64,000 nt of DNA from an uncultured Armatimonadetes bacterium (GCA_963716175.1 OY970296.1:1024001-1088000), one strand, 5' to 3'. Positions 9,523-63,703 are shown, counted from the first letter of the stretch. Numbers and translations: made by a program. The notes: generated by a model not told the origin, from the letters alone.

Positions 9523-9573
9523 CAGTGACTCCCAGGCGAGGTGGTAGCCGAAGCCGGGGGTGCCTGGGGCCGT
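9523..9573 (+). repeat. hairpin repeat family R, copy 1
   Basis: CAGTGACTCCCAGGCGAGGTGGTAGCCGAAGCCGGGGGTGCCTGGGGCCG. Confidence 0.7.
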
Positions 9574-9618
9574 ACGCACGAGCGTGGCGCCGGCCGGTGG
9601 CTGACTCACGCGTGCGCG

Positions 9619-10332
9619 CTACTTCGTGCTCTCGCGTCCCTTCGTCTGCCCGGAAGCCCCCGGCTTCTGCCGCTTCAGCACCACTGGCGCCTTGAACGCT
9701 CTATCCTCGCTCGCGTGCTCCAGCAGAAACGCGCGGAGCTGCTCCGGCGAGGCGGTCAGTGTCAGCGCGCCCTCTCTGTCCACGTGCGGAAGATTCAGCG
9801 GCTTCTCCCCGGCCTTCTCAGCCAGCCAGTCCGCATTCAACTCCGCGATCTTCAGCTCGTCGCCCGAAAGGTGGATCCGCGAGACGGTGTGAGTGGGCGC
9901 AAAGTGGAGGAAGAAGGAGAGGAGCACGAAATCGCCCTCCGAGCCATCACCGTCGGTCGTAGTGTCTCCGGGCTTCTCGCCGAGCGCCTGCGGGCAGATG
10001 TCCTCGGGGTAGAGGTCGAGGAAGCGATCCTCTCCCAGCTTGGCGAGCTGCACGCTGAATGTCGCCCAGCGATCCCCCTGGCTCATCTTCAGTTCATAGC
10101 TGGCGGCATCGTTCTCCGCCGCCTCCTCGCTCTTCTTGAACGCCCAGATAACGGGGGACTTCTCGGCCGCCTGCTCGCCCTTCTCCGGCTGTTGCTCCCA
10201 CGACCCGATCAGCGCTGGCTCGAAGACGACGTCCCTCTCGGTGTAGAACGGCTGCAGAGAGTTGACGACGAAAACACAGCCACAGACGCAGACGACCATC
10301 GCGAGGAAAACGATAAGCAGCGCTGTACGCAT
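9619..10332 (-). CDS. hypothetical lipoprotein
   Basis: Lipobox-like VCGC; 'SLQPFYTERDVVFEPALIGSW' resembles a known hypothetical lipoprotein family. Confidence 0.75.
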   Translation of the reverse strand: MRTALLIVFLAMVVCVCGCVFVVNSLQPFYTERDVVFEPALIGSWEQQPEKGEQAAEKSPVIWAFKKSEEAAENDAASYELKMSQGDRWATFSVQLAKLGEDRFLDLYPEDICPQALGEKPGDTTTDGDGSEGDFVLLSFFLHFAPTHTVSRIHLSGDELKIAELNADWLAEKAGEKPLNLPHVDREGALTLTASPEQLRAFLLEHASEDRAFKAPVVLKRQKPGASGQTKGRESTK

Positions 10333-10364
10333 GGTTCTGGTCCTTTGCCCTTAGGTGGCAGGTT

Positions 10365-10562
10365 CTACCTCCGGCCTGGATGCCAGCTGCACGGAGGGCA
10401 CGAGTCAAGTGGGGCAACCGGGCCCGACGTCCGCTGCACGTTCTCGGATCTCTGCCCCCCGAACGATGCGCCCACACCCCAGATCGCGGTGTCGCCCGTG
10501 CAGGCCGGCGCGCACGCAAGGGACAGCAGAAGAATGGGTGCGATGAGCAGCCGAGCCTTCAT
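10365..10562 (-). CDS. possible small lipoprotein or gene fragment
   Basis: MKARLLIAPILLLSLAC signal/lipobox; only 65 aa. Confidence 0.35.
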   Translation of the reverse strand: MKARLLIAPILLLSLACAPACTGDTAIWGVGASFGGQRSENVQRTSGPVAPLDSCPPCSWHPGRR

Positions 10563-10734
10563 CCGTCGGGCGTAGCATGCTATCTGGGCCGCCAAACCAG
10601 TGTCCCAAGGCTACTTTACAGCCACACAGATCCCTATGCCCTCCCCGGCCCAAGTGCAATCGATTCGATCCCAGGCCAACCCCGTCCACTCTACGACGAC
10701 TGCTGTCAAGATGATAGGGAGTCTCGAGGCGGTG

Positions 10735-12876: not shown

Positions 12877-13006
12877 TGGAGCCCATTTCATAACCTACCT
12901 GCTGGCTGGCCGCACCACGCCCTCGCATGAAATGCGCCTGCCACGGCCTGACGTTGTGCAGTGCTGTTTCATAACCTCCCCTGGGAAGGTTATGAAACAG
13001 CTTCTA
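12877..13006. mobile_element. MITE-A copy 1 (130 bp)
   Basis: TIRs T(A)GAGCGCATTTCATAACCT / AGGTTATGAAACAGCTTCTA; near-identical to 14566-14695 and 34498-34627. Confidence 0.85.
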
Positions 13007-13106
13007 ATGGCGTTCGCACAAAGAAGTAATGTGCGAACGCCGCTGTGGGCCCGTCTGAGCAGTTGCCCGAGCTTCGCCCCGTTACTTCCTTGGGCGAACC
13101 TCAGTA
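13005..13106. mobile_element. MITE-B copy 2 (diverged; shares terminal TA with MITE-A)
   Basis: Reverse-complement match to 3820-3921. Confidence 0.75.
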
Positions 13107-13159
13107 GTGATGAAGGCGGAGCTGTTCAGAGCGTGTCAGCGCCGCCGCGTTCGTCTTAC

Positions 13160-13221
13160 GCGACGGAACCCCAGGCAGTGGCACCCAGCCGAGCGGGTAG
13201 CCCGAGTCGGAGGCGCCTGGC
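13160..13221 (+). repeat. hairpin repeat family R, copy 2
   Basis: CCCCAGGCAGTGGCACCCAGCCGAGCGGGTAGCCCGAGTCGGAGGCGCCTGG. Confidence 0.75.
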
Positions 13222-14554: not shown

Positions 14555-14565
14555 GTCGTTCAGCC

Positions 14566-14695
14566 TAGAGCGCATTTCATAACCTACCTGCTGGCTGGCC
14601 ACACCATGCCCTCGCATGAAATGCGCCTGCCACTGCCTGACGTTGTGCAGTGCTGTTTCATAACCTCCTCTGGGAAGGTTATGAAACAGCTTCTA
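14566..14695. mobile_element. MITE-A copy 2
   Basis: 130 bp, CTAG at both ends. Confidence 0.85.
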
Positions 14696-14781
14696 GGGAT
14701 CTGACAGCAATCGGCGGCTGGTGGGGTGTCGATGACACTCCGCCGGCTTCCGCCTGTCACCGGAGTGGCACCCCGTGCCCA

Positions 14782-14940
14782 TGTCAGGGGCCCCCTGGAG
14801 CCGGCCTGACATCACGCCGCCAATCGGAATGCTGTGAGCCGTGCGTCCGAGAGGAGCAGCGGCCCGACGGTGCGCGACAGAGCCCCGAACAGTAACTCCC
14901 GGCCGAGCGGGTAGCCGGAGTCGGGGGTGCTCGGGGCCGG
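14782..14940 (+). repeat. hairpin repeat family R, copy 3 (long form with TGTCA...GAGCCGGCCTGACATC left module)
   Basis: Aligns with 17139, 40268 and 63548 copies; core TAACTCCCGGCCGAGCGGGTAGCCGGAGTCGGGGG. Confidence 0.8.
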
Positions 14941-15046
14941 CGCGGCCGGGTGCCCGCTCAGGCATAACTGATAGGCAGAGGAGACGCTCGGCGCACGACG
15001 AAGGCCGGTCTTGGGTGCCTGCAGTTCGTGGCAAGAAGGAACAGGA

Positions 15047-17138: not shown

Positions 17139-17290
17139 TGCCAGGGCCCGTGGAGCCGGCCTGACATCACGCCGCCAACCGGAATGCGGTGACCCGCGTG
17201 TCTGGGAAGAGCCGTCTGCGATGAGTGGCGACGAAACCCCGAGCAGCGACTCCAAGCCGAAGGGGTGAATAGAGTCGGGAAGCACCCGGA
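17139..17290 (+). repeat. hairpin repeat family R, copy 4 (long form)
   Basis: GCCCGTGGAGCCGGCCTGACATCACGCCGCCAACCGG...GACTCCAAGCCGAAGGGG...GAGTCGGG. Confidence 0.8.
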
Positions 17291-17419
17291 GGTCTTGCCT
17301 GGGCTGCACTGTTGTCGAGAGCAACAGCTTTGCTGGATGCCCCCGGAATGCCATGACGGACCGAGAAGGGACCACAGTAGCAGCGACGTGCGACTGTTAG
17401 CGTTGGCCGGCATTGTCGG

Positions 17420-17763
17420 CGCTCCCGCGCTGCCCCGCCCTGCCTGGGAGTATGAACGGGTTGAGCCGCGAGGAGTCGCAGGGCGCGGTTCCCTTCCGCG
17501 GTCAGCCGGTGGGGGTGCGAGCTACCGCTACCGATGGTCTGGTGGAGGTGCTCTTCTGCCATCAGGTGGTCAAACGCCTGAACCTAATGGTGTTCGCACA
17601 ACGAAGGAATGTGCGAACATCGCCCTGTGTCTGTCTGGGCCGCTTCCTGAGCTTCGCCATGTTACTTCATTCGGCGAAGCTCTTTAGCGGAGTGCCGGAA
17701 GGCGGAGTAGAAGCGTTACCTATGTATTCGGCACATCCGTTACCCATGTAGCCGGTCCGCACA
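17420..17763 (+). mobile_element. IS481-family remnant: transposase C-terminus and right end, interrupted by MITE-B
   Basis: 'PFRGQPVGVRATATDGLVEVLFCHQVVKRLNL' resembles IS481 C-termini; end GTTACCTATGT...GTTACCCATGTAGCCGGTCCGCACA. Confidence 0.75.
17585..17686. mobile_element. MITE-B copy 3
   Basis: 102 bp reverse-complement match to 3820-3921; inserted at the end of the IS481 ORF. Confidence 0.8.
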
Positions 17764-17882
17764 GGAGTCACTGGCCGGGGTCTAGTCGCTCATGCGTCCG
17801 CTATGGCATAGCAGCCGCGCCACGGCGGCGATCACCGGCAAGCCCGCCCAGTCCAACCCCCGACCGACCTCATCCTCCATCC
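17764..17882 (-). repeat. hairpin repeat family R, copy 5 (5' half only, cut by the IS481 end)
   Basis: Minus strand reads ...GTGGCGCGGCTGCTATGCCA...CCCCGGCCAGTGACTCC|TGT(IS481). Confidence 0.75.
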
Positions 17883-18814
17883 GCAGTGCTCTCCCGGACT
17901 GGGGTCGTGCGCGCAGGTACAGGATGGCATGAGACGTGCCGGGCCGGGGCGCTCGAGGCCGCACGACTGTCTGGACAGCGTGGGGTGTGGGGGTGCATCT
18001 GGTTCATCGCGGAAGGGTGAAAGGCGATGGTGTCACCATTGGGCGCATGGAAGGCGGAGACCTCAACGTGATAGATCCGTTTGATGGTGGATGGGGTGAC
18101 CACCTCCGCAGGCGGGCCATCCAGCACGATGGCGCCATCGCAGAGCAGGGCCACGCGAGTGGATGCCAACAAGGTGTGCTCCGGGTGATGGGTTGCTTTG
18201 AGAATCGCATAACCGTGGGCGGCGAGGCCGCGCAGGAGGGCTAGGAATCTGAGCTGGTTGCCGTAGTCGAGGCCGCTGACCGGCTCATCCATGATGAGAA
18301 TGCGCGCGCCCTGGGCCAGCGCACGAGCGATCAGAGCGAGCTGGCGCTCGCCGCCAGAGATCTCCGTGTAGGGGCGATCCGCCAGATCCGCGATGCCCAG
18401 CCGCTCCAGCATCTCCATCGCGACATGATGGTCGCGACGGGTGGCGGATCGGACCAGGCCAGTGTACGGAAGACGTCCGAGCACCGCGATCTCCCGCACC
18501 GTATAGGGGAACGGCGTGACATGGGTCTGGGGCACATAGGCGAGGTACCGTGCAAGCTCCCGGCGCGGGTAATGCGCCAACGGTTTTCCGTTCAGGGCGA
18601 CGAGCCCGGACCTGGGTCTAGACAGGCCCAGCAGCAGACGCAGGAGCGTTGTCTTCCCGGACCCGTTTGCACCGAGAAGCGATACGACCTCTCCAGACCG
18701 GATCTTCAGGGTGACACCGTGGAGTACGCTACGACCTGCGTAGGCGAAGTGCACCTCCTGTGCCACCAGCTCCAGAGACTCAGGCATGACGGATTCGGAT
18801 ACGCTCATATCCAT
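17870..18814 (-). CDS. ABC transporter ATP-binding protein (FepC/FecE-like)
   Basis: Walker A GANGSGKT, signature ISGGERQ, Walker B ILIMDEP. Confidence 0.92.
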   Translation of the reverse strand: MDMSVSESVMPESLELVAQEVHFAYAGRSVLHGVTLKIRSGEVVSLLGANGSGKTTLLRLLLGLSRPRSGLVALNGKPLAHYPRRELARYLAYVPQTHVTPFPYTVREIAVLGRLPYTGLVRSATRRDHHVAMEMLERLGIADLADRPYTEISGGERQLALIARALAQGARILIMDEPVSGLDYGNQLRFLALLRGLAAHGYAILKATHHPEHTLLASTRVALLCDGAIVLDGPPAEVVTPSTIKRIYHVEVSAFHAPNGDTIAFHPSAMNQMHPHTPRCPDSRAASSAPARHVSCHPVPARTTPVRESTADGG

Positions 18815-22564: not shown

Positions 22565-22565
22565 G

Positions 22566-23165
22566 CTAGCTCTCCCGAACGGCAAGGGTTATCGCCTCGG
22601 CCGCCGCAAGCTCGGCCCGCTTGAGCAGACGGGACTGCCAGGTGATGAACACGTTGTAGATGATGACAGAGGTGATGGCGACGGCCAGACCGGCCGCGGT
22701 CGCGACCAGCGCCTCTGAGATGCCAGCCGCGACCACGGCCGGGCCGGCCGCGCCGACTTGGCCGATGTCCCGGAAGGCGCGGATGATCCCGAGCACTGTT
22801 CCGAAGAGGCCGATGAAGGGGCTGATGTTGCCAATGGTGCCGACGACGCTCAGGTGTGCGCTGAGACGAAGCCCTTCTGCTGAAAGCGCAGTGCGAACCC
22901 GCTCCTCGACCTCAGCCCGCGGCAGCTCCCGATGCCGGAGTACCGCGGCTATCGCCCGCACCCCAGGTGCCGGCGCGTCCGGCCACTTCGGGTGGGGGTT
23001 GCCTGCTTGAGCGAGGGCTGTTCGGGCGTGGGCGATGAGCTCCTGCGGATCCCGATCAGCGCGCCAGAAGTGCCAGAGGCGCTCCACCAGAATGGCAACG
23101 CTCAACAGAGAGCAGAGCGCCAACGGGTAGATGACAAGCCCGCCTTGCCCGAGCAACTGGAACAT
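22566..23165 (-). CDS. exbB: MotA/TolQ/ExbB proton channel
   Basis: Own RBS GGAGGTGA and ATG (MFQLLGQGG); 'SPFIGLFGTVLGII', 'GISEALVATAAGL'. Confidence 0.9.
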   Translation of the reverse strand: MFQLLGQGGLVIYPLALCSLLSVAILVERLWHFWRADRDPQELIAHARTALAQAGNPHPKWPDAPAPGVRAIAAVLRHRELPRAEVEERVRTALSAEGLRLSAHLSVVGTIGNISPFIGLFGTVLGIIRAFRDIGQVGAAGPAVVAAGISEALVATAAGLAVAITSVIIYNVFITWQSRLLKRAELAAAEAITLAVRES

Positions 23166-23176
23166 GGGATCACCTC

Positions 23177-24620
23177 CTATCCTGACACTGGCTGGGCCGG
23201 GACTGAAGCCGAGCATCTGCGCGGCCGCATCGCGAGGTACACGGGTATGCCCGCGGCAAGAAATGCCGCGAGCCAGAGCATATCCCCAGGGTTGCGCAGC
23301 AAGTGGTTGACCATCAGCGCCATCGAGGACAGGCAGAAGATCGCCGGCACCCAGGGATAGCCCCAGGCTCGGTACGGTCGTGGCGCATCCGGTGCGCGAC
23401 GGCGGAGCACGAAGATCGCCGCGCCGGTGACGGCTGAGAGCAGCCAGATGACCAGGACAGTGAATGCCAGAATCCGACCGAGCGTCGCGCTCGAGAACGA
23501 TGATGCACGCGAGAGTCGCTTGGGCAGCGATGGCTGCCACCGGCACCCGTCTCTGTCGGTGGACTGAAGCCAACACGCGAGGGAAGAGCCCATCTTGTGC
23601 CATCGCGTAGTAGATGCGGGGGCCGACCATGACGGTGGCGTTGAGCGATCCCAGAATGCAGACCAGGATAGCCAGGGTCAGGATGCCGGACAGGCCGGGG
23701 CCGAGCAGCGAGTTCGCCACATCTCGCACCGGGACGGTCGACCCCGCCAGTCCAGCCACGGGGATCCCGTAGAGCAGCACGACGTTGAACATCAGGTATA
23801 ACACGATGACCAGCAGCGTCCCGAACACGAGCGAGCGCGGGACACTGCGCTGAGGATGGCGCACCTCCGCCGCCATATAGGTGGCTGCATCCCATCCGAG
23901 GTAGGCGAACGACACGCCGATGAGGGCAGCGCCGAACTCCGCGAGCCCGGCGCCGCCCACGACCGGCGTGCCACCACCGAGGTTGGCCCAGCTCCCCCGC
24001 CCGGCAAACAGTCCAAAGCCGGCAATGCCGACCAGGGCGGCGATCTTCAGCCCAGTGAGGAGGTTCTGGGCGCCGCTGCCCGTGCGCAGTCCGAGACCAT
24101 TGATCACCGAGAGGGCGATGATCAAGGCGATGGCGAGGATGTTCGCAGAGGCGACACTCCATCGGAAGATGGGTGTCTCGACAGTCCAGAGGGCATGCCC
24201 GGTCCACGCGGACGGCAGATAGGTCATGAGACCAAGTGCGACGAACGCGATGGACCCCGGGAAGGACGCGACGAACGACAGCCATCCATCGAAGAAGCCA
24301 ACGAGCGGACCATACGCCTCCCGGAGGTAGACGTAGTGGCCGCCGGCGCGGGGGATGGCGGCGCCCAGTTCAGCGTATGTCAAGGCGCCCGTGAGCGCCA
24401 TGATCCCTCCGACCAGCCAGGCGCCGAGGATAAGCGAAGGCGTCGGCAGATGCTTCGCGACCTCGCCGGTCGTCAGGAAGATGCCGCTGCCGATCATGCT
24501 GCCCACGACCAGCAGAACGCAGTCCGCGAGCCCCAGGCCTCGCATGAGCCCGGCCGGCTCCTGTGTGACGCTCGCCGCATCCTGCGCCACTTCAGCCGCC
24601 GCATCGCCGATTGTCGTCAT
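23177..24620 (-). CDS. APC-family amino acid permease, frameshifted at about 23492
   Basis: 'GSMIGSGIF', 'GGHYVYLREAYG', 'FAYLGW'; the true C-terminus 'RPYRAWGYPWVP' is in ORF 23177..23593; one extra base in CTC-G-AGC. Confidence 0.85.
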
Positions 24621-32555: not shown

Positions 32556-32700
32556 ACAGTCTCCGGCTACCCCCTCGGCTGGGAGTTACTGGGCGAGGTG
32601 CGCCGCGTATGCGTCTGGTATGGCATAGCAGCCGCGCCACGATGGCGATCGCCGGCAGCCCCGCCGCGCCAAGACCTCACCCGGTATCGCTCCTCATCCT
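32556..32700 (-). repeat. hairpin repeat family R, copy 6
   Basis: Reverse complement matches 38740-38850 (GTGGCGCGGCTGCTATG..ATAC...GCATACGCGGCGCACCTC...CCAGCCGAGGGGGTAGCCGGAG). Confidence 0.8.
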
Positions 32701-32754
32701 CGGCGCCTCCCACCACAGGAGCATCGGCGATCGTCGGGGAGACCGGAAGACGCG

Positions 32755-34284: not shown

Positions 34285-34397
34285 CGTGTCCTCCATCGCA
34301 CTGCTCCTCTTGTCCGGGATCACCCGGAGAGTCCGAGTCCATTCTGCCTTTCGCCGTCCGACGATCCGTTGCCTACGGCCGAAAGACACATCGTTCC

Positions 34398-34499
34398 CAG
34401 GGAGCTTCGCCGAATGAAGTAACACGGCGAAGCTCAAGAAGCGGCCCACACAGGCACAGGGCGATGTTCGCACATTACTTCGTTGTGCGAACATCATTA
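34398..34499. mobile_element. MITE-B copy 4
   Basis: Near-identical to 3820-3921. Confidence 0.8.
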
Positions 34500-34627
34500 G
34501 AGCGCATTTCATAACCTACCTGCTGGCTGGCCGCACCACGCCCTCGCATGAAATGCGCCTGCCACGGCCTGACGTTGTGCAGTGCTGTTTCATAACCTCC
34601 CCTGGGAAGGTTATGAAACAGCTTCTA
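34498..34627. mobile_element. MITE-A copy 3
   Basis: 130 bp; shares TA with MITE-B. Confidence 0.85.
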
Positions 34628-34689
34628 GTCACGTTCGGCAGCGCCTCAACCGAGACGAGGCGGGCGCTGGGCTCTGCTGCGACGGTTGC

Positions 34690-34889
34690 GCCTGCTGCAG
34701 AATCTAGATTCGGGGGCATCCGCCATTTGTTGGTTCACAGCCACGAACTCCCGTCGCTGCTGCTCCACGCTAACAGGCCCCCAGGGCATGACCCTTCTCC
34801 TCTGCGCAGAGATGCATGCCTCTATAGTAACCGCTTGCCCGTTACCTATGTATGCGGTACGAGTGTTACCTATCTATCCGGTCTGTACA
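34690..34889 (-). mobile_element. IS481-family remnant: left end and transposase N-terminus
   Basis: Begins TGTACAGACCGG...GGTAAC repeats; RBS AGGAG and ATG at 34789 give MPWGPVSVEQQRREFVAV, like IS481 'MPW...RxEFV'. Confidence 0.75.
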
Positions 34890-34953
34890 ACCCCAAGCCG
34901 AGGGGGTAGCCGGAGTCGGGGTGCCCTCAGGCCGGCTTCACGGGCGGTTGACA
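34890..34953 (+). repeat. hairpin repeat family R, copy 7 (3' half + right module ending TTGACA)
   Basis: ACCCCAAGCCGAGGGGGTAGCCGGAGTCGGGGTGCCCTCAGGCCGGCTTCACGGGCGGTTGACA. Confidence 0.8.
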
Positions 34954-38587: not shown

Positions 38588-38716
38588 GGCTTCACTTTCC
38601 TTCCGAGGCTTCGACACCGCGTCCTGTCCAGAGACTCACCTGGCTGCCAGGGTGCTCGGACAGCCTCTCTCGTGGTATTCTCTCCTCTCGTCGATACCCC
38701 TGTGCTGGGAGGCATA

Positions 38717-38889
38717 GAGGATGGTGAGCGCGATTTCGATGGGGCGGGCCTACGGGTCATTGCTACCGTGGCGCGGCTGCTATGCAATACCGGATGCATA
38801 CGCGGCGCACCTCACCCACTGGTTCCAAGCCGAGGCAGCAGCCGGAGTCGCGGGGAGCGCCCTCAGGCCGGTTTCACGGGCGGTTGACA
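38717..38889 (+). repeat. hairpin repeat family R, copy 10 (middle module + core + right module)
   Basis: Colinear with copy 5 joined to copy 7; ends CTCAGGCCGGTTTCACGGGCGGTTGACA. Confidence 0.8.
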
Positions 38890-40100
38890 GGGGCATGCGC
38901 GATCACAATCCCGTACTTCCCCGGCTGCAGATCCGCCAGCGCCACCACGATGAAAGTCGAGCAGCCCTGCCGCCAGCTGTAGTAGCCGTTGCTCTCCGAT
39001 GGTCTCAGCTTCCGCCCGTTAACGCGCACACTGCGTATGGTCCGGTTCCCACGGACCGCCACCTGGAATCCTGCCCCGCAGGCGAGCCCCGGCCCCGCAT
39101 ACTCCACCTTCAGCCGCTTCTCGTCAGGCTTTTCCGGCGCCTCGACTGCGAAGGCCTTGAAGTCGTCTCGGTTCCGCCACAAGGCGATTCGGCTCTGGCG
39201 CCGTGCGGCCGCCGTCTTGCCGATCGCCACCAGCCCCTTCTGGAACATCCCGATCAAGTAGCACGGGTATCCCGCGTAGCGCAGTTTCGGATGGCGGCGA
39301 TCGCCCCACGCAAGCAGGGCCTTAAGCTTCGCCAGTCCACTTCGGACGCGATCCTTCGCGGGGTACGCGTACTCATTGCTCTCGCATGTCTCAATGAGCA
39401 TGGATAGAGACTTGAACCGGCGGTAAGCAAATGCGCAGGCGCTGCTCACGTCCGGGCTCTCGCTCATGAAGCCAGGCCAGCTCAAGGGATGGGCGATGTT
39501 GGGGATGCCGGCCCTCTCGCCGGCCTCGGCCATCTCGGCGGCGATGCGATGCAGCAGGTAGTCGTCCTCGGTATAAGTCGCTGGCTCGCTCCACAGCACC
39601 ATGTCGTAGCTGCACCCGGCATAGCCTCTGGCGTGCATATCCACGTAGAGCTCGGGTCCGAGTTCGTAGGCCACCTCTTCCAGCGCCTTCCCCTCAGGCA
39701 GCTTTGGCCCGGAAGGAGCATGGTCGCGGAACGGCCGCGGCCCGTCTGGCGTATCGTAGACGTCACGCTCGGCGCTGTCCGGGTTCATGTTCGGCATGAC
39801 CACGATCTTCTGCTTCTGCCTCACCTCTAGAGCAGACGGCGACGTTAGCCACCCAATGAGCGCGAGCGCACCCAGCCGTCCGCTTTCCTCGTTCCCGTGG
39901 TGCCCGGCCGCGATCAGGACGTGCTGCTTGTCCCAGTCGGCGACGCTGGGATCGGTGATCGTCACCGCGTGGATCGGCCGCCCTTCGGCCGTGACTCCCA
40001 TCCTATGGATCTTCACCAGGTCGGGATGGCGCTGCTGGGCCCGGAGTATCAGTGCCGCTACTTCCGCCGAGGTGGGGCTTACTGCCTGTCTTTCGGTCAT
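38874..40100 (-). CDS. M14 zinc carboxypeptidase-family protein
   Basis: 'AGHHGNEE', 'PNMNPD', 'DMH', 'IE' motifs. Confidence 0.8.
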   Translation of the reverse strand: MTERQAVSPTSAEVAALILRAQQRHPDLVKIHRMGVTAEGRPIHAVTITDPSVADWDKQHVLIAAGHHGNEESGRLGALALIGWLTSPSALEVRQKQKIVVMPNMNPDSAERDVYDTPDGPRPFRDHAPSGPKLPEGKALEEVAYELGPELYVDMHARGYAGCSYDMVLWSEPATYTEDDYLLHRIAAEMAEAGERAGIPNIAHPLSWPGFMSESPDVSSACAFAYRRFKSLSMLIETCESNEYAYPAKDRVRSGLAKLKALLAWGDRRHPKLRYAGYPCYLIGMFQKGLVAIGKTAAARRQSRIALWRNRDDFKAFAVEAPEKPDEKRLKVEYAGPGLACGAGFQVAVRGNRTIRSVRVNGRKLRPSESNGYYSWRQGCSTFIVVALADLQPGKYGIVIAHAPVNRP

Positions 40101-40267
40101 GCCAGTTCCCTCTGTACTCACGCCCTAGCCGGTTCCGTGGCCGGGCGCGCCCTTCCTGTTCCCCGGAAGTCCGGGCTGGCCTGCCCCGTGCGGCAGGCGG
40201 TCGCGCGACATTGCCTCGATATGCGTGCAGGATCAGGGCACGAAGCGCTATCGGCATCTCTCCCCGT

Positions 40268-40430
40268 TGGGGGCCCGTGAAGCCGGGCTGACATCACCCC
40301 GCCAACCGGAGAGCCGCGACCTGCGTGTCTGCGAAGAGTCGTTTGCGATGGGTGGCGACGGAAACCCGGCCAGTGACTCCCAGCCGAGGGGGTAGCTCGG
40401 AATCGGAGGGTGCTTCGCGACCCTGGGGCC
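40268..40430 (+). repeat. hairpin repeat family R, copy 11 (long form)
   Basis: GCCCGTGAAGCCGGGCTGACATCACCCCGCCAACCGG...CAGTGACTCCCAGCCGAGGGGGTAGCTCGGAATCGG. Confidence 0.8.
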
Positions 40431-40438
40431 TACCTCAG

Positions 40439-41137
40439 TCAGGTCTCGCGCGGCGGGAAGTCCACCAGCCGGAAACGCTCCGACATCCAGAAGGTCTCGA
40501 CGGCGTGACGGTTGGCCCGCCTGACTCGCTCGGCCTCCGCCTCGAACTCCGCCCGAGTCCTGCCGAAGAGCGTGTGCTGGGAGACCTGTGTAGCGTTGGC
40601 GAGCAGGGAGTAGTGGTCGTAGCCAGTCACATCGAAGGTGACGATGGGGCCGACAGCGCGAACCGAGGTCTCGACTTCCTTGTAGTAGTAGAGATGGCGG
40701 ACCTGCCAGGCGTCGCCCAGATCAGCGGCGACAGGCTGCCCCGCCTGCCAGACGGCGGGGACAGTGATCTGGTAGGTGGCGACGTGGTCCGGGTTGATGC
40801 CGGCGGGGCCGTGGGTGAACACGGCGTCCGGCTTCGCCTCCCGCACGGCGCGTATGCAGTCCTTGAAGACCTGCTTGCCGTGGACAAGGCCCATGTCGGG
40901 GCAGTCGATGCGGAAGCGCTTGGTGACGCCCAGGACCTGGTCGCACTCCTCCATCTCGGCGGCGCGCATGGCAACGATACGATCTCTCCAGGCGGGATCG
41001 GGAAAGCCCTCGGAGCCGTCCGTCATGATGGCGACGAAGACCTGCACGCCGGAAGCGGCGAGTTTGGCCATGGTGCCCGCCATCTTGATCTCATCGTCTG
41101 GGTGAGCGCCGAAGACGAGGATTCGCTGGTAGTTCAT
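40439..41137 (-). CDS. PIG-L/LmbE family deacetylase
   Basis: 'GAHPDDE', 'TDGS', 'R.AE', 'NPDH'; RBS GGAGG. Confidence 0.88.
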   Translation of the reverse strand: MNYQRILVFGAHPDDEIKMAGTMAKLAASGVQVFVAIMTDGSEGFPDPAWRDRIVAMRAAEMEECDQVLGVTKRFRIDCPDMGLVHGKQVFKDCIRAVREAKPDAVFTHGPAGINPDHVATYQITVPAVWQAGQPVAADLGDAWQVRHLYYYKEVETSVRAVGPIVTFDVTGYDHYSLLANATQVSQHTLFGRTRAEFEAEAERVRRANRHAVETFWMSERFRLVDFPPRET

Positions 41138-41251
41138 AGCAATGCCTCCGCACAGGGTCGGGAGCTAGCCTTCGAGGTTCGGGGAGAGTTCCCTGTCCGT
41201 GTGCGAGCAGGCTTCGCTCCTTAGCTGCTGCCGCGGACGATGACACCGGTT

Positions 41252-41322
41252 GCGCGACCGAACCCCGGGCAGTGACTCTACGCCGAGGGGGTAGCCGGAG
41301 TCGGGGGCGCCCGGGGCCGCCA
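41252..41322 (+). repeat. hairpin repeat family R, copy 12
   Basis: CCCCGGGCAGTGACTCTACGCCGAGGGGGTAGCCGGAGTCGGGGGCGCCCGGGG. Confidence 0.82.
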
Positions 41323-41491
41323 GTCAGGGCGGTTTGGCGGCTCCAGCGACAGTCCCGTCGCGAGCTCAGGTGAACGTCGCCCTCGCACATGTAGCGCGAA
41401 ACCGTGATCTTGGGCTGCGACTACGGTCCTGCACTCAGCAATCACGAGTCAGGAGAGCGGGCGAACAGAGGATCGGCAGGTGCTTGGCAGG

Positions 41492-41677
41492 TTATGGTCT
41501 ATCCGCCAGCAGGCCTCCGCCGACACCGATGTTCTCTCGCTCGTTCTCACGAATGATCGTGATGAAGGCTTCCTTGCGGATGCCTGTCACCTTGTGCGCC
41601 ATCTCCGTGAACTGTTGGACGAGTACGGCCTTCTGCTCCTTGCTCAGCTTCCCACCGTCGAATGTGATGACTGGCAT
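41492..41677 (-). CDS. dmpI: 4-oxalocrotonate tautomerase family protein
   Basis: MPVITFDGGKLSKEQK...ENIGVGG.LL; catalytic Pro1; RBS AAGGAG. Confidence 0.9.
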   Translation of the reverse strand: MPVITFDGGKLSKEQKAVLVQQFTEMAHKVTGIRKEAFITIIRENERENIGVGGGLLADRP

Positions 41678-42979: not shown

Positions 42980-43211
42980 GCTGCGCCCTCCATTCTGCAG
43001 TTAGCCACTGGCGCCGCAGCTTCCCTGTGGGCCGCGCGCGGGACGCGCCTCCACAAGGAACAGCAGCGCTACCAGCGAGGACACCAGAAATGAAAGAACT
43101 AGTACGGCTAGGGTCCCTATCATCACCCTGTTGAGGACAATTGTCTGTCTCCAGCCAGGAAGGCCACAACCGTCGCAGGAGCGCAAACGTTAGCGCGAGT
43201 CCAGCGACGCT

Positions 43212-44133
43212 GGATGGTGTCCCGTTCATAGTTGAAGGTTGAGGCGGCTCTCTCCAGCCCGGTTCTGATAGAATCGGGTAACCCAAAGCTTGAAAAGGAG
43301 AGAACCGCCGTGAGAAGAGAGTATCAGGTTGTGGGTCGCAAGGGTAGTGCCGCGCTGCGCCAGTTTCTGGCGAGGGAGGGGGCGGCGCTGGTGCCGATGA
43401 TGGAACTGCTGGAGGCGGGGCAACTCGCCGTGGAAGAGCTAGTGGGGGAGATGGGAAAGGCGGCGCTGGAGGCGGTGCTGCTGATCTCAGCCGAAGAGGT
43501 GGCGGGGCCGGCGCATCCGGGCCGGCCGGGCGGGGTGATCCGGCGCCATGGCGAGCAAGGCGGGATAGTCGCGCTGGGGGGCCAGAAGGTGCGGGTGAGC
43601 AAGCCGCGGTTGCGCCGGAAGGGCGGCGGGGAGGGGGCTGAGGTGGCGGTGCCGGCTTATGCCGCGATGCAGTCCGATGAGAGGCTGCGGGAGCGGATGC
43701 TGTCGATTGTGATGCGAGGGGTGAGCACGCGCCATTACCAGGAGGTGGTGCCGGAGCTGGCGGAGCGCTGCGGGGTATCGCGCTCGGCGGTGAGCCGGCA
43801 GCTGCAAGAGGCGAGTGCGGAGGCGCTGCGGGAGCTGTGCGAGCGGCGCTTCGATGACCTTGACCTGTTGGTGATCTACCTGGACGGCAAGCACTTCGGG
43901 GGCCACCAGGTGGTGAGTGCCATCGGAGTGGACGCAGCGGGCTGCAAACACGTCCTGGGCCTCACCGAGGGGGCCACGGAGAACGCGGTGGTAGTGAAGG
44001 GACTGCTGGAGGAGCTGGTGGAGCGAGGGGTGCGCCCGGAGCGCAGACGGCTGTTGGTGATTGATGGCTCGAAGGCGTTGCGCAAGGCGATTGATGATGT
44101 CTTCGGCAAGCAGCATCCAGTGCAGCGCTGCCT
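43212..44133 (+). mobile_element. IS256-family element, 3'-truncated (left TIR + N-terminal part of the transposase)
   Basis: 'GVSTR', 'GVSRSAVSR', 'IYLDG', 'IDGSKAL', 'VQRC', then similarity is lost. Confidence 0.88.
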
Positions 44134-44829
44134 ATCTCGGTGGCGGTCGCTTTCCACGAAGAGGCGGATACCAGCAGGCCCCGTCACCGCGCTGCTCGCA
44201 CTTCGCGAGATCGTCGCCCAGCGCTATCCCATGCTCGGCGCAACACGGGAAGCCAAGTCGGTCCTTCGTGATGTGGGAACAGCGTTGGTGCTGCTTCCTG
44301 TCTTCTGTCCGCATATCCGCTCCACGCGACTACCCGAGCAGGAACGGCTCACCCCTAACACAGGAAGGTAACTCAGCAGGAACGCTCGCGGGGGCTGCCC
44401 GCTCCCCTCGGATCGCCTCACTTCGTTCTCCGACCGCGCAGTATGGTCCTGCCATGAAAACAACCGCGACGCCGAGGCACAGAGCAAAGCCCTACGCCAG
44501 GAGAAGGTGCGCTTTTCCCATGCAAGGGCTACGACTGGAGCGGCTATCACGACGTGATGGCCGTTCCCATCTCTTCGACTTCGCGGCAGCAGGTTAGGCC
44601 CGGTCTTCGAGGCGGGCCTTCCGGCTCCCTGTCGGTTGAAGACTACCGAATGGGAGGCGCTTCGAGAGGATCTCTCTGGCGGGAGTGGCAGAGGCGCTTA
44701 GGACTCACGAGGAGCTGAGGTCTACTAGGCAAGAGACGGGGTGCCCGCTGAAGGAGTCCCTTCTCACAAACCGGTCTGCCTGTGGAACAACCATAGAAGC
44801 AGTTGCTGTAGACAAAGGCCTGATAGCCC

Positions 44830-46685: not shown

Positions 46686-46722
46686 GAGCCCCACGGGACC
46701 ATGAACCGCGGGGCTCTGTTTT
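46686..46722 (+). terminator. putative intrinsic terminator
   Basis: GAGCCCCACGG...CCGCGGGGCTC followed by TGTTTT. Confidence 0.45.
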
Positions 46723-47443
46723 GGATGGTGTCCCGTTCATAGTTGAAGGTTGAGGCGGCTCTCTCCAGCCCGGTTCTGATAGAATCGGGTAACCCAAAGC
46801 TTGAAAAGGAGAGAACCGCCGTGAGAAGAGAGTATCAGGTTGTGGGTCGCAAGGGTAGTGCCGCGCTGCGCCAGTTTCTGGCGAGGGAGGGGGCGGCGCT
46901 GGTGCCGATGATGGAACTGCTGGAGGCGGGGCAACTCGCCGTGGAAGAGCTAGTGGGGGAGATGGGAAAGGCGGCGCTGCGGGCGGCGTGGAAGCTGGAG
47001 CCCAAGGAAGGGATGGCGCGGCTGCACACCCAGATCGAGTGGCTGGAGCGAACTCATCCCAAGGCCGCGGCCAGCCTGCGGGAGGGCTTGGAGGAGACCT
47101 TCACCATCGCCCGACTGGGGCTGTCGCCGATGCTGCGCACCTGCCTGACCACCACCAACATCATCGAGAGCTCGCTCTCGGGGGTGGAGGGTCGCACCGG
47201 CCGCGTCACCCGCTGGCGCTCGGGAGAGATGGCCTTGCGCTGGGCCGGGGCGGCCGCGCTGGAGACCGAGCGCAGCTTCCGCAAGATCATGGGGCACAAG
47301 GGCCTCTGGATGCTGAAGGCCGTGCTGGACGAAGGCCAGTCGCTTAGCGACCGGTCGCAGATCTCAGTTGACGAGGGCCGTGTCGCGGCCTAAGATACGC
47401 GAGAGGGACCGCCCAACCTTACACTACGGGCGGGACATAATCC
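46723..47443 (+). mobile_element. internally deleted IS256 (both TIRs, 721 bp)
   Basis: Left TIR GGATGGTGTCCCGTTCATAGTTGAAGGTTG; right TIR reverse complement GGATTATGTCCCGCCCGTAGTGTAAGGTTG; N-terminus fused in frame to the C-terminus ('TTNIIES'). Confidence 0.88.
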
Positions 47444-47583: not shown

Positions 47584-47712
47584 GGGATTCGAATCCACCA
47601 GAGGCGTCTGGGTGCGTCCTAGACTGATCTGGGACGATTTCGCCTATCTGGCGGAGCAATGTATGACAAAGATAATAAAGCCGTGAGCGCCGATCTCGCG
47701 GCGGATCCTACA
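47584..47712 (-). other. hybrid att-like junction (left arm as at 63878-63950, core TGGCGGAG, right arm as at 1267-1331)
   Basis: 63/73 identity to 63878-63950 counted by hand; about 80% to 1267-1331. Confidence 0.75.
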
Positions 47713-48216: not shown

Positions 48217-48292
48217 CACAGGGGAGCTCAGATGGTAGAGCGCGGGACTGAAAATCCCGGCGTTCCCAGTTCGACTCTGGGACCCGGCACCA
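48217..48292 (+). pseudogene. tRNA-Phe(GAA) pseudogene with a broken acceptor stem
   Basis: Intact D-arm, anticodon arm CGGGA-CTGAAAA-TCCCG, T-arm and CCA; 5' strand CACAGGG pairs only 3/7 with ACCCGGC; G instead of U8. Confidence 0.75.
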
Positions 48293-48530
48293 AGGAGTGA
48301 GGCGACGGCGAGAGCCGTCACCTTTCATCTCCCGTCGGCTCCCGCGGTGCTACCATCGCCAGTATCGGCATAGCGCTTCCGGACCGGGGCCGCTCGTGAA
48401 GGTTGCAGGTCTGGGGTGGGGAACTGATACACGAGGGCCCCGAGCCCTGTCCGCCGCCAGTTCGGCATCTGCAAGTGGGAGGCCATCGTGCCGAGGAGTC
48501 GGCTGCTGGACAGCAACGAAGGGAGGCGCG

Positions 48531-60104: not shown

Positions 60105-60160
60105 TGGCCCCGACCCTACGCCGAGGGGGTAGCCGGAGTCGGGGGTGAACGGGGCCGCCA
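60105..60160 (+). repeat. hairpin repeat family R, copy 13
   Basis: GACCCTACGCCGAGGGGGTAGCCGGAGTCGGGGGTGAACGGGGCCG. Confidence 0.78.
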
Positions 60161-60747
60161 GCGGTCAACAGCGGTAGGCGGCCGGGCCCGAGCACTCGTG
60201 GGCCGATAACGCCAGTTCCGTCGCTAGGAAGAGAACGCCGGTTACCGCGCCAGCAAACGGGCTGAGCCGGGGCGTCGGACTGTTCATCACCTGCCCATTG
60301 CGTGGTTCGAACCCAGGGCGTGGTACGTAGCCATTCATAATGCGCTTTCCAACGTGCTGGTCCGGCGGTGGCAGTTGCCCCGGCAGGGACGCCGGCCGCG
60401 ACTGACAGCGGAGACGTAAAGGGCCGAGGAATGCCGTCACCAGCGTCACAAAGAGCGAGGCGGTCAAGCCACGGTAAGCACCCGGTGTCAAGCGCCTGCC
60501 GCCGCATATGGTTGGGTTCCCAACCACCGATCTGCCTGCTAACTGCCGAGGCTGTCCAGGACGCGGCGTCGTTGCATCTCCGGAATCTATCCCGGATGCT
60601 GTCCTGAGCCAAGCAACCCGTTTGACAGCGGGCCAACTGCGCCACTGCTGGCGCTCTGCAGGCTCACAGCCGTCCAGTTCTGGAAGTGGCAGTGCACGCA
60701 GCGAGCATGGTATACTCAGACAGCGTATACGAGGGGACGAGCGCAAG

Positions 60748-61941
60748 GTGTCACTCTCGCCAAAGGTAGAACTGGGCCACCGCGATCTGCTGAGGTGGGC
60801 GCGCGAGTCAGCAGGCTACAGCACTCGTGAAGTAGCCGCGTTCCTCCGGAGAACGGAGGACGGCATCGTTGACTGGGAAGAAGGCCGCGGTCGGCCAAGA
60901 TACAAGACACTTGAGCGCCTCGCCACCAAGTACAAGAGACCAGTTGCTGCGTTCTTCCTGCCGGATGTGCCGACGGAGCCTCCGTCCCCAGAGGACTTCA
61001 GGACAACGCCGCGACGGGGGGCAGACGAGTACCACCCGGATTCCCTGCTGGCGTTCCGAGAGGCCCGAAACTGGCTGGCCGACACGCGAGAGCTGCTAGA
61101 CCTCCTGGACATGGACCTGAGGTTCTCGCTCCCAGCCTTCACCCTTGGTGACCCTCCAGGGAACGTGGCGTCTGAGATCCGCGAGGTCCTCGGAGTTGCC
61201 GTTGAGGAACAGCTGCGCTGGCGACAGAACCACTACGCAGTCAGCTACACGTGGAGAGATGTGCTGTTTGACCATGGCATCCTGGCAATAGTCTTCAAGA
61301 TGCCCATGGACGATGTCCGCGCGTTCTCAGTAGTGGGAGACAATTTGGCCTGCATCGGGCTGAACAGTGACGATCTCGGCTACGGGCGGGTCTTTTCTTT
61401 GTTCCACGACGTGGGACATCTATGCCTGAGACAGCCTGGTGCCTCGGGCCGCTCCCCCACAATGCTGCCTCAGTCTGTCGGCTCAAGCCAGGAGACTGTT
61501 GAGCGCTACTGCGACCGATTTGCCGCCAGCTTCCTGATGCCCGCGGATCATCCCCGTGTACAGGGAGCGTTGTCTGGCATCGCGCAAGACCCGTCCCGGG
61601 ATCGGATAGAACGCGTCGCGCGCAGCTTCAAAGTGAGCAAGTATGTCACGCTCGGCCGGGCGTGGGACCTCCATTACATCAGTGGGGATCTGTACTGGAC
61701 TCTGTTCAGAGCATGGCAAGAGAGCGACGCGGCTTCTCGGGAGCGACGCGGGAAGGGGGGTCCTGGCCCTCCCGAGAAGCGGGTCAGTTGGGTGGGACGA
61801 CGACTGACATCCCTGGTCTTTGAGGCCCTGGATTCGCGGCAGATCACCCCCTATGAGACTAGCAGGCTTCTCGGCCTGGATTCACGGTATCTTGCGCGGG
61901 CGCGAGAACTCTCTACTTCGGGGCTGGGTGATGCCGAATAA
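60748..61941 (+). CDS. XRE-HTH + ImmA/IrrE (COG2856) metallopeptidase-domain protein
   Basis: 'LLRWARESAG...WEEG..RP....LE.LA..Y.RP.A.FFL'; 'FSLFHDVGH'; 'E.YCD.FAA.FLMP'. Confidence 0.88.
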   Translation: MSLSPKVELGHRDLLRWARESAGYSTREVAAFLRRTEDGIVDWEEGRGRPRYKTLERLATKYKRPVAAFFLPDVPTEPPSPEDFRTTPRRGADEYHPDSLLAFREARNWLADTRELLDLLDMDLRFSLPAFTLGDPPGNVASEIREVLGVAVEEQLRWRQNHYAVSYTWRDVLFDHGILAIVFKMPMDDVRAFSVVGDNLACIGLNSDDLGYGRVFSLFHDVGHLCLRQPGASGRSPTMLPQSVGSSQETVERYCDRFAASFLMPADHPRVQGALSGIAQDPSRDRIERVARSFKVSKYVTLGRAWDLHYISGDLYWTLFRAWQESDAASRERRGKGGPGPPEKRVSWVGRRLTSLVFEALDSRQITPYETSRLLGLDSRYLARARELSTSGLGDAE

Positions 61942-62455
61942 CGCCCCGATCTACAGTCTGGATGCGAGCGCAGTCATTTGGCTGAAGGAGCAGTATCGGT
62001 TCGAGGTAACCCACTTCCAGACGCTGTGGGAGAGGATCGGCGACCTAGGCGAGGAGGGCCGAGTCCGGATAGCGGAAGAGGCAAGGAACGAGTGCCACGA
62101 TCAGGTCCTTCAGGACTGGTTCAACAGGTATCCCAACATGGTCGAGCCCTTCTCGGCGGAGCTCAACACATATGTCAATGCTCTGAACGCGGACCTCGCC
62201 AGTGTTCGGTTGCCCCTCGTCGACCCCCAGTCAACGGACAGTCTGGCCGATCCGTTTGTCGTGGCCCTGGCACTGCAGATTGAACAGCGCCCGATCGGCA
62301 ACCTTGGCGTCCCTGGAAACCAGCGGTGTCACGTCGTTTCCTATGAGGCCCCGAGGATGCGAGCGCGGGGCTTCGCGCGTATCCCGCTCGTATGCCAGCA
62401 CTACGGCCTTCGTTGCTTGGAGTGGCCGGACCTGTTCCAGATAGAGGGATGGTAG
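61931..62455 (+). CDS. PIN-domain protein (DUF4411-like)
   Basis: 'YSLDAS', 'E..NE', 'ADPFVVALA', 'VVSYE', 'IP.VC..YG'; overlaps the upstream gene. Confidence 0.85.
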   Translation: MPNNAPIYSLDASAVIWLKEQYRFEVTHFQTLWERIGDLGEEGRVRIAEEARNECHDQVLQDWFNRYPNMVEPFSAELNTYVNALNADLASVRLPLVDPQSTDSLADPFVVALALQIEQRPIGNLGVPGNQRCHVVSYEAPRMRARGFARIPLVCQHYGLRCLEWPDLFQIEGW

Positions 62456-62792
62456 CGCTGACAGTGCGCCGGCCGGCGCACGCGGCCCGCTGTGGGAACA
62501 CATGACTCGACACCTCTGCCGCCCCCTATGTGCTCGCCGCCGCACCCGTGCCGCGTCAAGCGCCGCCGGGTTCCAGTCCCACTCGGCTAGGCCCCGCAAG
62601 CCGGACAGCACCATCGCCTCGCGGCAAAGGTAGTCGCGCTGTTCTCGGGGTCGCAAGAGCGGCCCCCACCCGCGCCGAGGGCGCCGGCCGAAGCCAGCGC
62701 CCCCAGGTCCTACCCGATCAGGCGAGAGTCAAGCGACGGCCACCCAACTGGTGGGAAAGGTCCTGTCGTGCAGACGCCGTATTGGTTCGGCC

Positions 62793-63242
62793 ATGGCTGA
62801 CTCCGGTCTCATACTGGGCCTTTTCGATCGGTTGGGGACCCCTTTCAGGGCCGTCTGGCGCTGCCTACGTGGGCGCATAATCGGGTCTCTGCAGCTCGTT
62901 CCCCACGAGTCGTTGTGCTTCTGGCAGTCTGGCGCGCGGAACAGGGTGGGTGGGATGATTGTGAGGGCCGTGTTCCATGCGACGAATATGAGCTCCGATC
63001 CCATTTGGCTGGTGGCCGCTCGCCTCCGTAAGCCTGCTACTGGAGGCGTCGTGCGCGTGACCTATGAGATGAATGTCACGGGAGACTGCGCTCTGGAGCC
63101 AAAGAGGCGAATGTTCGCCCATGCGGATTTCTTCGTCGTCCCTCCCGTTTGCACGGCGTTCGAGGACTTCGTCGCGGACGTGGTGATAGTTGACAACCTC
63201 GGACATCCGCATCGCAGGCGAGTAGTCTTCAGACACCGATAG
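62793..63242 (+). CDS. hypothetical protein
   Basis: Open frame with beta-rich content; start uncertain. Confidence 0.5.
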   Translation: MADSGLILGLFDRLGTPFRAVWRCLRGRIIGSLQLVPHESLCFWQSGARNRVGGMIVRAVFHATNMSSDPIWLVAARLRKPATGGVVRVTYEMNVTGDCALEPKRRMFAHADFFVVPPVCTAFEDFVADVVIVDNLGHPHRRRVVFRHR

Positions 63243-63547
63243 TATGGCCATCCCGTCGCCTGCTGCCCGTTCACGCCGCCCACCTCGCCTTCGCCCGCAG
63301 TCCGGTCAGCTCGATCTTCTTCTCCATGAGCCGCAGGACAGGTCGCGTTATTGTAGTCCCCTTGTTCGAGCTGGGGATGTAGGCGGACTGCAGAGCGGCG
63401 CGCCCCACGTGGGCTTCAGGGCCGCGCTTCGTAGGCAGGTGATGGTAGAGGTGCGGCCGGTCACGTAGCGGGGCGTTCTTCGTCGGAAATGCCCATCTAG
63501 CGGCACTTTCCCGAGCGAGTCGAGGCCGAGATGGGTCAACCTGTGGC

Positions 63548-63703
63548 TGTCAGCCACCCATGGAGCCGGCCTGACATTATGCCCCCAACTGAAAGGCTGT
63601 GACCCGCGTGTCTGGGAACGACTGTCGCTCGATGGTGCGACGAACCCATGGACGGCGAGCCCAAGCTGGGGAGATGGCCGGAGCAGGGCAGGGCCCGGAG
63701 CCG
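63548..63703 (+). repeat. hairpin repeat family R, copy 14 (long form, diverged)
   Basis: TGTCAGCCACCCATGGAGCCGGCCTGACATT...GACCCGCGTGTCTGGGAA. Confidence 0.75.

Follow-up and report, generated by a model that had tools for sequence, protein, structure and literature searches.

A co-oriented mosaic repeat with cassette-like island architecture in uncultured Armatimonadota

Our analysis of a 64,000-nt stretch from an uncultured Armatimonadetes bacterium (GCA_963716175.1, OY970296.1:1024001-1088000, which we refer to as the window) centres on a repeat with a core of ~75 nt that lies between the genes of genomic islands and parts them, often one at a time. It is not an integron, it is a real and new repeat family with a cassette-like island architecture, restricted to one family of uncultured Armatimonadota. 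Its copies are clustered and co-oriented, the ends of homologous segments coincide with them, and the cassettes they bound are shared within and between genomes, so that the modules of an island behave as independently assorting pieces with the repeat as the junction between them. We read the family, with a probability of roughly 0.4, as a mosaic intergenic repeat which provides portable homology for the recombinational gain, loss and exchange of island gene modules. Our literature searches returned no description of such repeats in Armatimonadota.

Copies, islands and core of the repeat

The genome is a single contig of 4.56 Mb (65% GC), in which a hidden Markov model (HMM) of the core, built from 74 aligned genomic copies, recovered 106 copies, 12 of them in the window; an earlier HMM built from nine window copies recovered 101. 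The first-pass annotation, made from the window alone, had listed 14 copies. Twelve of these were found at or near their listed places by the HMM, but the other two are partial or degenerate and were recognised by eye only: the minus-strand copy at 17764 is a 17-nt arm, and the one at ~63650 falls under the HMM threshold and was recognised because the same upstream module precedes it as three other copies. The repeat family is real and far beyond chance. Allowing up to three mismatches, a 17-mer matched the window eight times against 0.67 expected, a count reached by none of 100 shuffled sequences, and a repeat search of the window returned families of seven and eight copies in register. Across the genome, an exact 21-mer of the core occurs 17 times and a 17-mer 29 times.

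Copies were confined to 13 of 46 100-kb bins, with a median spacing of 2356 nt against 29.8 kb under random placement, and 75 of the 105 gaps were shorter than 5 kb, where 2000 random placements gave 21 at most. Orientation switched ten times among the 106 copies, against a mean of 44.6 and a minimum of 31 in label shuffles, thus the clustering in islands and the strand bias suspected from the window hold for the genome. By the counts of a simple purpose-made gene caller, 91 intervals between copies were shorter than 15 kb, and these contained one called gene in 47 cases, two in 19 and none in four. As claimed from the window, copies sit at gene boundaries: 100 of 101 were intergenic, the exception lying inside a small open-reading frame (ORF). 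Between 32.5 and 41.5 kb of the window, they part unrelated single genes encoding a beta-helix protein, an unknown protein, a second beta-helix protein, an M14 peptidase, a PIG-L protein and a tautomerase; the separation of unrelated genes described there was confirmed, although not the label "BtrH-like", the protein concerned having no Pfam hit.

All four arrangements of flanking genes occurred around the 101 copies, with both genes opposite to the repeat in 39 cases, divergent genes in 27 (plus the one in the small ORF), convergent genes in 19 and both genes along the repeat in 15, therefore the repeat is not tied to 3′ ends. An adjacent gene 3′ end was present at 73% of copies, about what chance predicts. 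Counted singly, 125 flanking genes run opposite to the repeat direction and 77 along it, and the repeats point against the prevailing gene strand and GC skew of their surroundings, with two small exceptions (28–30% of coding DNA lies on the plus strand in plus-strand arrays, 57–100% in minus-strand arrays). Both minus-strand copies in the window lie between two remnants of an insertion sequence (IS) end, which fits the inversion that had been proposed for them; the 17-kb segment between the remnants holds transporter genes only.

In the 74-copy alignment, the core consists of three short inverted-repeat segments (an outer one of 6 bp, a middle one of 9 bp and an inner GACTCC/GGAGTC) around a 17-nt centre containing GTAG, which spaces the arms 17 nt apart. 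Conservation was uneven: the centre and inner arms were conserved at 90% or above, in keeping with the constancy of GTAG and the loop seen in the window, whilst the middle arms were variable, and AAC/GTT triplets at the core edges were not conserved. The compensatory stem changes reported by the first-pass annotation did not survive the larger alignment: 75.1% of cells paired against 76.2% in column shuffles, of which 498 of 500 were equal or higher, and 12 cells carried double changes against 21.1 expected. Pairing exceeded that of slid controls (28–45%), hence the consensus is palindromic, yet the arms vary independently. Ten single-stranded DNA folds of eight window copies gave z-scores of −1.07 to +1.29 against dinucleotide shuffles, and the hairpin is not unusually stable in a genome of 65% GC. 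It is the sequence that is conserved, and not the fold. Rfam searches of the window at gathering thresholds returned tRNA only, and a scan of 34300–41600 with E-values up to 5 gave just two chance miRNA matches, so that no known Rfam family matched the repeat, as anticipated. A structured RNA, one of the earlier suggestions, is unlikely because the same evidence counts against the fold.

The core is embedded in flanking modules, and the modular make-up described from the window, two alternatives upstream and end modules in inverted orientation, was upheld. Upstream stands either U1 (~215 nt, 19–29 copies depending on the criterion) or U2 (~90 nt, 15 copies), downstream an end module X or a module Y, and many combinations of the two sides occur. 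Since the first part of U2 is an inverted X, three U2-core-X units bear imperfect terminal inverted repeats of ~35 nt. X also occurs alone at 15 further sites in the genome. At three sites outside arrays (genome 26733, 79211 and 4553767), X follows another conserved stretch of ~150 nt, which looks like another repeat family with the same end. Three readings of U1 were rejected: as a 5′ leader with a ribosome-binding site, since a long ORF followed only 2 of 19 motif matches (among 101 copies); as a structured RNA, with an alifold energy of about −6 and one compensatory pair; and as a gene remnant, for which blastx gave spurious overlapping ORFs only.

The conserved centre and inner arms, the intergenic position and the conservation across genera would also suit a selected DNA or RNA signal outside recombination, such as a binding site for nucleoid-associated or regulatory proteins, a terminator or insulator between island genes, or a small RNA. 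We regard this as very improbable: divergent genes with no 3′ end near flank 27 of 101 copies and the 73% adjacency to 3′ ends is that of chance, sequence inspection found no U-tract after the inverted repeat in either direction, Rfam matches, covariation and excess stability are all absent, U1 has no conserved fold, and a signal of this kind leaves the breakpoints at the repeat unexplained.

Homology ends and cassette sharing at the repeat

Many pairs of copies in this genome share flanking DNA at 91–100% identity on one side only, with the homology ending in or at the core (for example 1065252/2057658, 1061102/2025763, 1914534/2007038 and 1033508/1976374). The PIG-L cassette of the window has a second, 97% identical copy with different neighbours at 2056807–2057713, and the segment without a called gene between the 36.6 and 37.1 kb cores recurs between two cores at 2025.8–2026.3 kb.

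Cassettes are also shared between genera. Among 61 related genomes scanned with a covariance model, with at most 74 candidates scored per genome, the repeat was present in seven, all of one family; three carried many copies (this genome, referred to as G000, G005 with at least 68 matches and G011 with at least 28) and four a single match. Single window cassettes have counterparts on separate contigs of G005, which belongs to another genus, that are 91%, 84% and 93% identical, the identity to G011 being 79%, whilst an ordinary neighbouring orthologue was ~72% identical between genera, a baseline taken from one locus. The M14 peptidase cassette starts at a core in both this genome and G005, and the cassettes shared across genera include ~100 nt of upstream sequence. 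The core centre is identical across three genera. An exact 24-mer was found outside this genome in two Armatimonadota metagenome-assembled genomes only, and an exact 21-mer in at least 132 metagenome stretches; the 21-mer had no match in viral contigs, and a blastn search of a plasmid collection with a 251-nt query gave none either.

We examined 79 metagenome loci, of which 36 held multiple copies, and in 35 of these the copies were co-oriented (the 36 are spread over 32 contigs, and some sequences were recovered repeatedly, from more than one sample). Pairwise comparison of metagenome contigs placed roughly half of all internal ends of homology within 17 nt of a repeat, with repeats making up ~3% of the sequence, and some pairs were 100% identical right up to the repeat, pairs for which assembly chimeras at repeats may also account. 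Module homology thus stops at the repeat within the genome, between genera and in metagenomes, which supports the idea of a cassette junction and the proposal that gene content changes at repeat boundaries.

The position of the break was not constant. Breakpoints fell at the 5′ edge of the core in some pairs (L121/L133, L078/L083 and 2058773/2259785, where L numbers denote metagenome loci), within the core in others (1061102/2025763, 1065252/2057658, 1914534/2007038 and 2279843/789345), and at the 3′ edge or in X in a third set (L093/L118, L100/L104 and 1033508/1976374). A change-point scan of 198 near-complete cores gave 20 one-sided pairs, with change points at 10, 11, 20, 24, 30, 33, 35, 41, 50, 64, 68, 73, 73, 73, 77, 93, 95, 103 and 136 and an outlier at −95. 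There is no single crossover point, the breaks are spread over the whole repeat.

Neither empty sites nor synteny across a repeat were found in relatives, whose intergenic DNA does not align because orthologues are only ~72% identical, and no pair of loci sharing both flanks, one with and one without the repeat, was found in relatives or metagenomes. Logan contigs from four DNA runs, which are short, contained two core-to-core joints, one from 40385 to 41289 (903 nt skipped) and one from 40390 back to 36671, both with sides of less than 30 nt, a kind of joint that often arises from repeats or other organisms. The region 35.3–38.5 kb was uncovered in run X4 and no contig spans the gap.

Recombinases, insertion sequences and known systems

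The first-pass annotation described an array with no recombinase. This held for the integron integrase IntI, as the TIGR02249 model run over the whole genome gave 90 bits at best against a cut-off of 265, but it did not hold for a multicopy tyrosine recombinase that is found at some island ends and, in fragmentary form, within arrays. This protein scores best as XerC/XerD (232 bits as XerC, 64 bits as IntI), it is present in this genome in two intact copies and at least six fragments and in G011 in eight copies, and a small gene of ribbon-helix-helix-like type accompanies it. Homology among the ten copies compared ended, in every case, between −19 and +23 nt from the stop codon, and the gene behaves as if it terminated a mobile element.

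An enzyme-driven cassette system akin to integrons or Xer-dependent elements, in which a recombinase acts on the core, double-stranded or folded, to insert and excise modules, would give the strictly co-oriented, cassette-like architecture, and the strong conservation of the centre and inner inverted repeat, with a centre identical across genera, resembles that of a protein-binding site. Such a system might have arisen independently of integrons, reading a ~75-nt site as sequence, with an enzyme other than IntI, the Xer-like recombinase being the best candidate, cutting at its edges or centre and trading single-gene modules between islands and genera; several breakpoints do fall at the two edges of the core. 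Close homologues of the recombinase (at least 84%) occur in five of 15 genomes of the family, the three repeat-rich ones and two others with an in-frame TGA, and in three cases, by coordinates, an intact recombinase gene is preceded, 7–15 kb upstream and on the same strand, by an array. Truncated recombinase genes also adjoin repeat parts directly: in metagenome locus L140 the gene begins at about codon 187 immediately after the 3′ edge of a core, and at 2027 kb in this genome it is fused, at about codon 207, to the distal end of a U1 module. A third fragment begins near codon 195 with no repeat adjoining; several 5′-truncated remnants start between codons 187 and 207. We nevertheless hold such a system to be distinctly unlikely. 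There is no IntI and the protein on offer is best described as XerC/XerD, none of seven G011 recombinase copies has a core within 4 kb, the crossover points vary, covariation and excess fold stability are absent, and the core arms are 17 nt apart against the customary 6–8 nt of tyrosine recombinase core sites. Among 229 called proteins of 64 metagenome loci, one has a tyrosine recombinase domain, and this is the L140 fragment. The Xer-like recombinase is not physically tied to the repeats and is a candidate enzyme only.

Known Xer-dependent systems offer a partial likeness. A dif-type site is 28 bp long, with two 11-bp arms and a spacer of 6–8 bp, and pdif sites alternate in orientation, whilst integrative elements such as CTX phage (IMEX elements) use a folded single strand. 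The islands share with such systems their site-bounded gene modules, an Xer-family recombinase in the genome and the possibility of tandem accretion; however, no 28-bp dif-like site was seen, the arms are 17 nt apart, orientation does not alternate, and no link between the recombinase and the repeat was seen. In Acinetobacter, Xer-dependent gene modules are bounded by recombination sites (pdif modules, PMC7399989).

Measured against integrons and CALINs (attC clusters lacking integrase) as defined by Cury et al. 2016 (PMC4889954), the likeness lies in a repeated site in one direction that parts mostly single unrelated genes, in some cassettes without genes, in the recurrence of cassettes in other arrays and genomes, and in arrays mostly without an adjoining integrase. 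The differences are that no IntI with its extra domain (~35 residues near patch III) is present; that sequence is conserved and structure is not, the reverse of attC sites, whose fold includes an unpaired spacer and extrahelical bases; that R and L boxes are absent, as is a fixed crossover at the 3′ edge, by which every integron cassette retains its own site; that genes lie in both orientations with long upstream regions, whereas the ORFs of attC cassettes are co-oriented and mostly promoterless; and that mosaic modules surround the site. Of five integron-defining features tested, the array architecture alone is present. The suggestion of an attC-like single-stranded hairpin therefore finds no support, whether from an integrase, covariation, folding energy, a single crossover or gene orientation.

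The alternative suggestion, a REPIN-like substrate of an HUH transposase, fared no better. None of the five Y1_Tnp (HUH) genes has a core within 2.5 kb (best E 0.64), and Y1_Tnp genes occur in 11 of 15 genomes of the family, including genomes without the repeat. A search for Y2 (IS91-type) transposases gave no match, although the control also matched nowhere. Repetitive extragenic palindromic (REP) sequences, their bacterial interspersed mosaic elements (BIME) and REPINs are dispersed, short, imperfect palindromes that alternate in orientation and form stable hairpins, with a RAYT gene flanked by repeats. The repeat described here is likewise short, imperfectly palindromic, intergenic, mosaic with other motifs and lineage-specific, and it has GTAG and CGTC tetranucleotides, but it is clustered in islands and co-oriented, it flanks no RAYT gene, its hairpin is not unusually stable, and it lies between divergent genes as often as chance predicts.

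A mobile repeat of the REPIN type or a miniature inverted-repeat transposable element (MITE), copying into intergenic DNA and owing its cassette look to insertion-tolerant islands and later shuffling, would explain the three units with imperfect terminal inverted repeats, the solitary X modules, the degenerate and partial copies and the range of copy number from 0 to >100 within one lineage; an orientation that tracks a replication-linked strand bias is moreover expected of single-stranded DNA transposition. Even so it is an unlikely account, as both ends are present in three of ~106 copies, and we saw no target-site duplication and found no autonomous element sharing these ends. Cut-and-paste movement by a DDE transposase would randomise orientation, whereas 35 of 36 loci are co-oriented; Y1 genes neither adjoin cores nor co-occur with the repeat, and the Y2 search, weak as its control was, gave no transposase either. 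Copies are confined to 13 of 46 bins where genome-wide spread would be expected, and no filled and empty locus pair with both flanks shared was found.

In Neisseria, dRS3/RS arrays, Correia elements and "minimal mobile elements" are mosaic repeats at which modules are swapped between strains within conserved flanks. There, as here, repeat arrays mark sites of rearrangement and modules are swapped by recombination, but the Armatimonadota repeat parts individual genes over 40–120 kb and differs in sequence family, phylum and strict orientation.

The cores are themselves targets of insertion. A 1.3-kb IS481-family IS encoding a 379-aa rve transposase has entered cores at two positions and duplicated 5 bp at each: at one loop position it duplicates GGTAG, in three places with different flanks, and a second junction type lies at ACTCC. 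This IS seems to prefer the repeat as its target. A TnsABC/Tn7 reading of its TGT...GGTAAC ends was rejected, since the element is the 1.3-kb IS itself and the 17-kb window segment holds transporters only.

The coordinates of the repeat and its associated features are collected in Table 1. Several further features of the window lie near the arrays. Two pairs of direct repeats, 4009–4076 with 48233–48300 (overlapping a tRNA at 48222–48286) and 47584–47656 with 63878–63950, bracket stretches of 44 kb and 16 kb that hold all window copies of the repeat, they look like attachment-site scars of integrated islands, and no integrase gene lies in the window. Other repeat families stand beside the arrays at 3823–3922 and 34401–34500 (98%) and at 12879–13016, 14568–14705 and 34500–34637. 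In the 34.3–34.8 kb bin, summed contig depth reached 1176 in one metagenome run against tens in its neighbours, which points to an element of very high copy number. At 43310–44371 there is a transposase gene of IS256 type (Mutator family), with a 265-nt direct repeat (43211–43475 and 46722–46986, 99%, 3.5 kb apart). One ORF called at 22566–24620 on the minus strand combines an amino-acid permease with MotA/ExbB domains, which are separate genes on the metagenome relative L121, and either a genuine fusion or a miscall by the gene caller may lie behind it.

Table 1 Features of the repeat arrays; positions are those of the window unless marked as genome.
Feature	Position	Strand	Basis
Core copy, near full length	9504–9581	+	nhmmer E 1.9e-11; repeat family D1/D2
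Core copy	13156–13220	+	nhmmer E 1e-11
Upstream module U2, starts with inverted end module X	14792–14874	+	family D6 (4 copies, 83 nt); U2 cluster, 15 genomic copies
Core copy	14871–14942	+	nhmmer E 3.1e-15
Upstream module U2	17147–17229	+	family D6
Core copy, right arm degenerate	17227–17299	+	nhmmer E 4.4e-09; weak fold, z +1.29
IS481-family terminal remnant abutting cut core	17714–17763	+	family D19; same end at intact IS copies, genome 1725.5 kb and 1905 kb
Core left arm only (17 nt), cut by IS end	17764–17780	-	17-mer with 1 mismatch; sequence inspection
U1-type upstream module of the cut minus-strand copy	17787–17889	-	family D11, 72% identical to 32604–32706
Core copy, left two thirds	32561–32610	-	nhmmer E 8.5e-08
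U1-type upstream module	32604–32706	-	family D11; U1 cluster member
Second IS481-family end remnant	34840–34889	+	family D19
Core copy, right two thirds, begins at IS junction	34889–34945	+	nhmmer E 5.4e-09
End module X	34934–34953	+	exact 20-mer match, genome 1058934; family D20
Core copy	36628–36703	+	nhmmer E 1.4e-15
Cassette without called gene, duplicated between two cores at genome 2025.8–2026.3 kb	36704–37101		one-sided homology pairs at both bounding cores
Core copy	37102–37181	+	nhmmer E 3.1e-12
Core copy, degenerate	38798–38880	+	nhmmer E 5.6e-06
End module X	38870–38889	+	20-mer match, genome 1062870
M14 peptidase cassette, ~92% identical to G005 contig (other genus)	38866–40196	-	Pfam; cross-genome alignment
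Upstream module U2	40274–40356	+	family D6
Core copy, right arm abnormal	40355–40416	+	nhmmer E 1.2e-11
PIG-L cassette, duplicated at 97% at genome 2056807–2057713	40402–41307	-	alignment; junction views
Core copy, best in window	41251–41329	+	nhmmer E 6.4e-17
Core copy, right two thirds	60109–60162	+	nhmmer E 1.4e-08
Upstream module U2	63557–63639	+	family D6
Degenerate core copy, under HMM threshold (E 0.01)	63640–63703	+	by eye, after U2
Intact Xer-like recombinase	genome 808917–809825	+	
Intact Xer-like recombinase	genome 2242359–2243354	-	
Xer-like recombinase fragments	genome 2027174, 2102488, 2113780, 1952893, 2241445, 92337		
IS481-family IS in cores	genome 1725.5–1726.8 kb, 1904.5–1905.8 kb, about 1975 kb		

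Proposed portable homology and the flexible gene pool

The reading that we favour takes the repeats as portable recombination junctions in genomic islands. A module between two direct copies could be looped out, deleted, duplicated or replaced, and a single crossover within a resident copy could bring in a module from another island or genus. Such a crossover would leave a copy on each side and keep the direction, so that same-direction, mostly single-gene arrays would build up. Homology would guide the exchange, with the shared identical blocks of 17–27 nt as substrate for RecA-type recombination or gene conversion; modules may travel as circles that are reinserted. The first placement of a repeat beside a gene may be due to the few units with terminal inverted repeats at both ends, moving in the manner of MITEs. 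Junctions spread over core and flanking modules, in an element conserved as sequence and not as fold, argue for such homology-guided exchange and not for a precise cut of the IntI type, and together with the absence of a linked enzyme they speak against an attC-like or HUH-type hairpin substrate.

Several points weigh against this reading. A passive patch of homology leaves unexplained why the 21-mer is identical across three genera, given ~72% identity between their orthologues, and throughout at least 132 metagenome stretches; selection or active spread is needed for that. Identity over 17–27 nt is at the lower limit for RecA-type exchange, as judged from work on E. coli. Some core edges are joined to DNA of little homology, as in the joins to the recombinase gene at about codon 187 (L140) and at about codon 207 (a U1 end in this genome), and these look more like the work of an enzyme or of illegitimate recombination. 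Repeat orientation follows strand bias and GC skew, and could be set by a replication-linked mechanism. Finally, exchange between copies does not account for how a gene first acquired its repeat.

Integrons are, to our knowledge, the only well-understood system which stores and shuffles single genes as cassettes, and we know of no established origin for the cassettes. Here a little-studied phylum shows an integron-like architecture built on a different repeat and without an integron integrase. If the arrays are driven by homology, a simple portable repeat can confer cassette-like modularity on islands; if they are driven by an enzyme, they represent a second, independent cassette system. In either case the 21-mer offers a practical marker in metagenomes for the flexible genes of these bacteria of wetlands and sediments, among them genes for glycoside hydrolases, beta-helix proteins, peptidases, regulators and defence.

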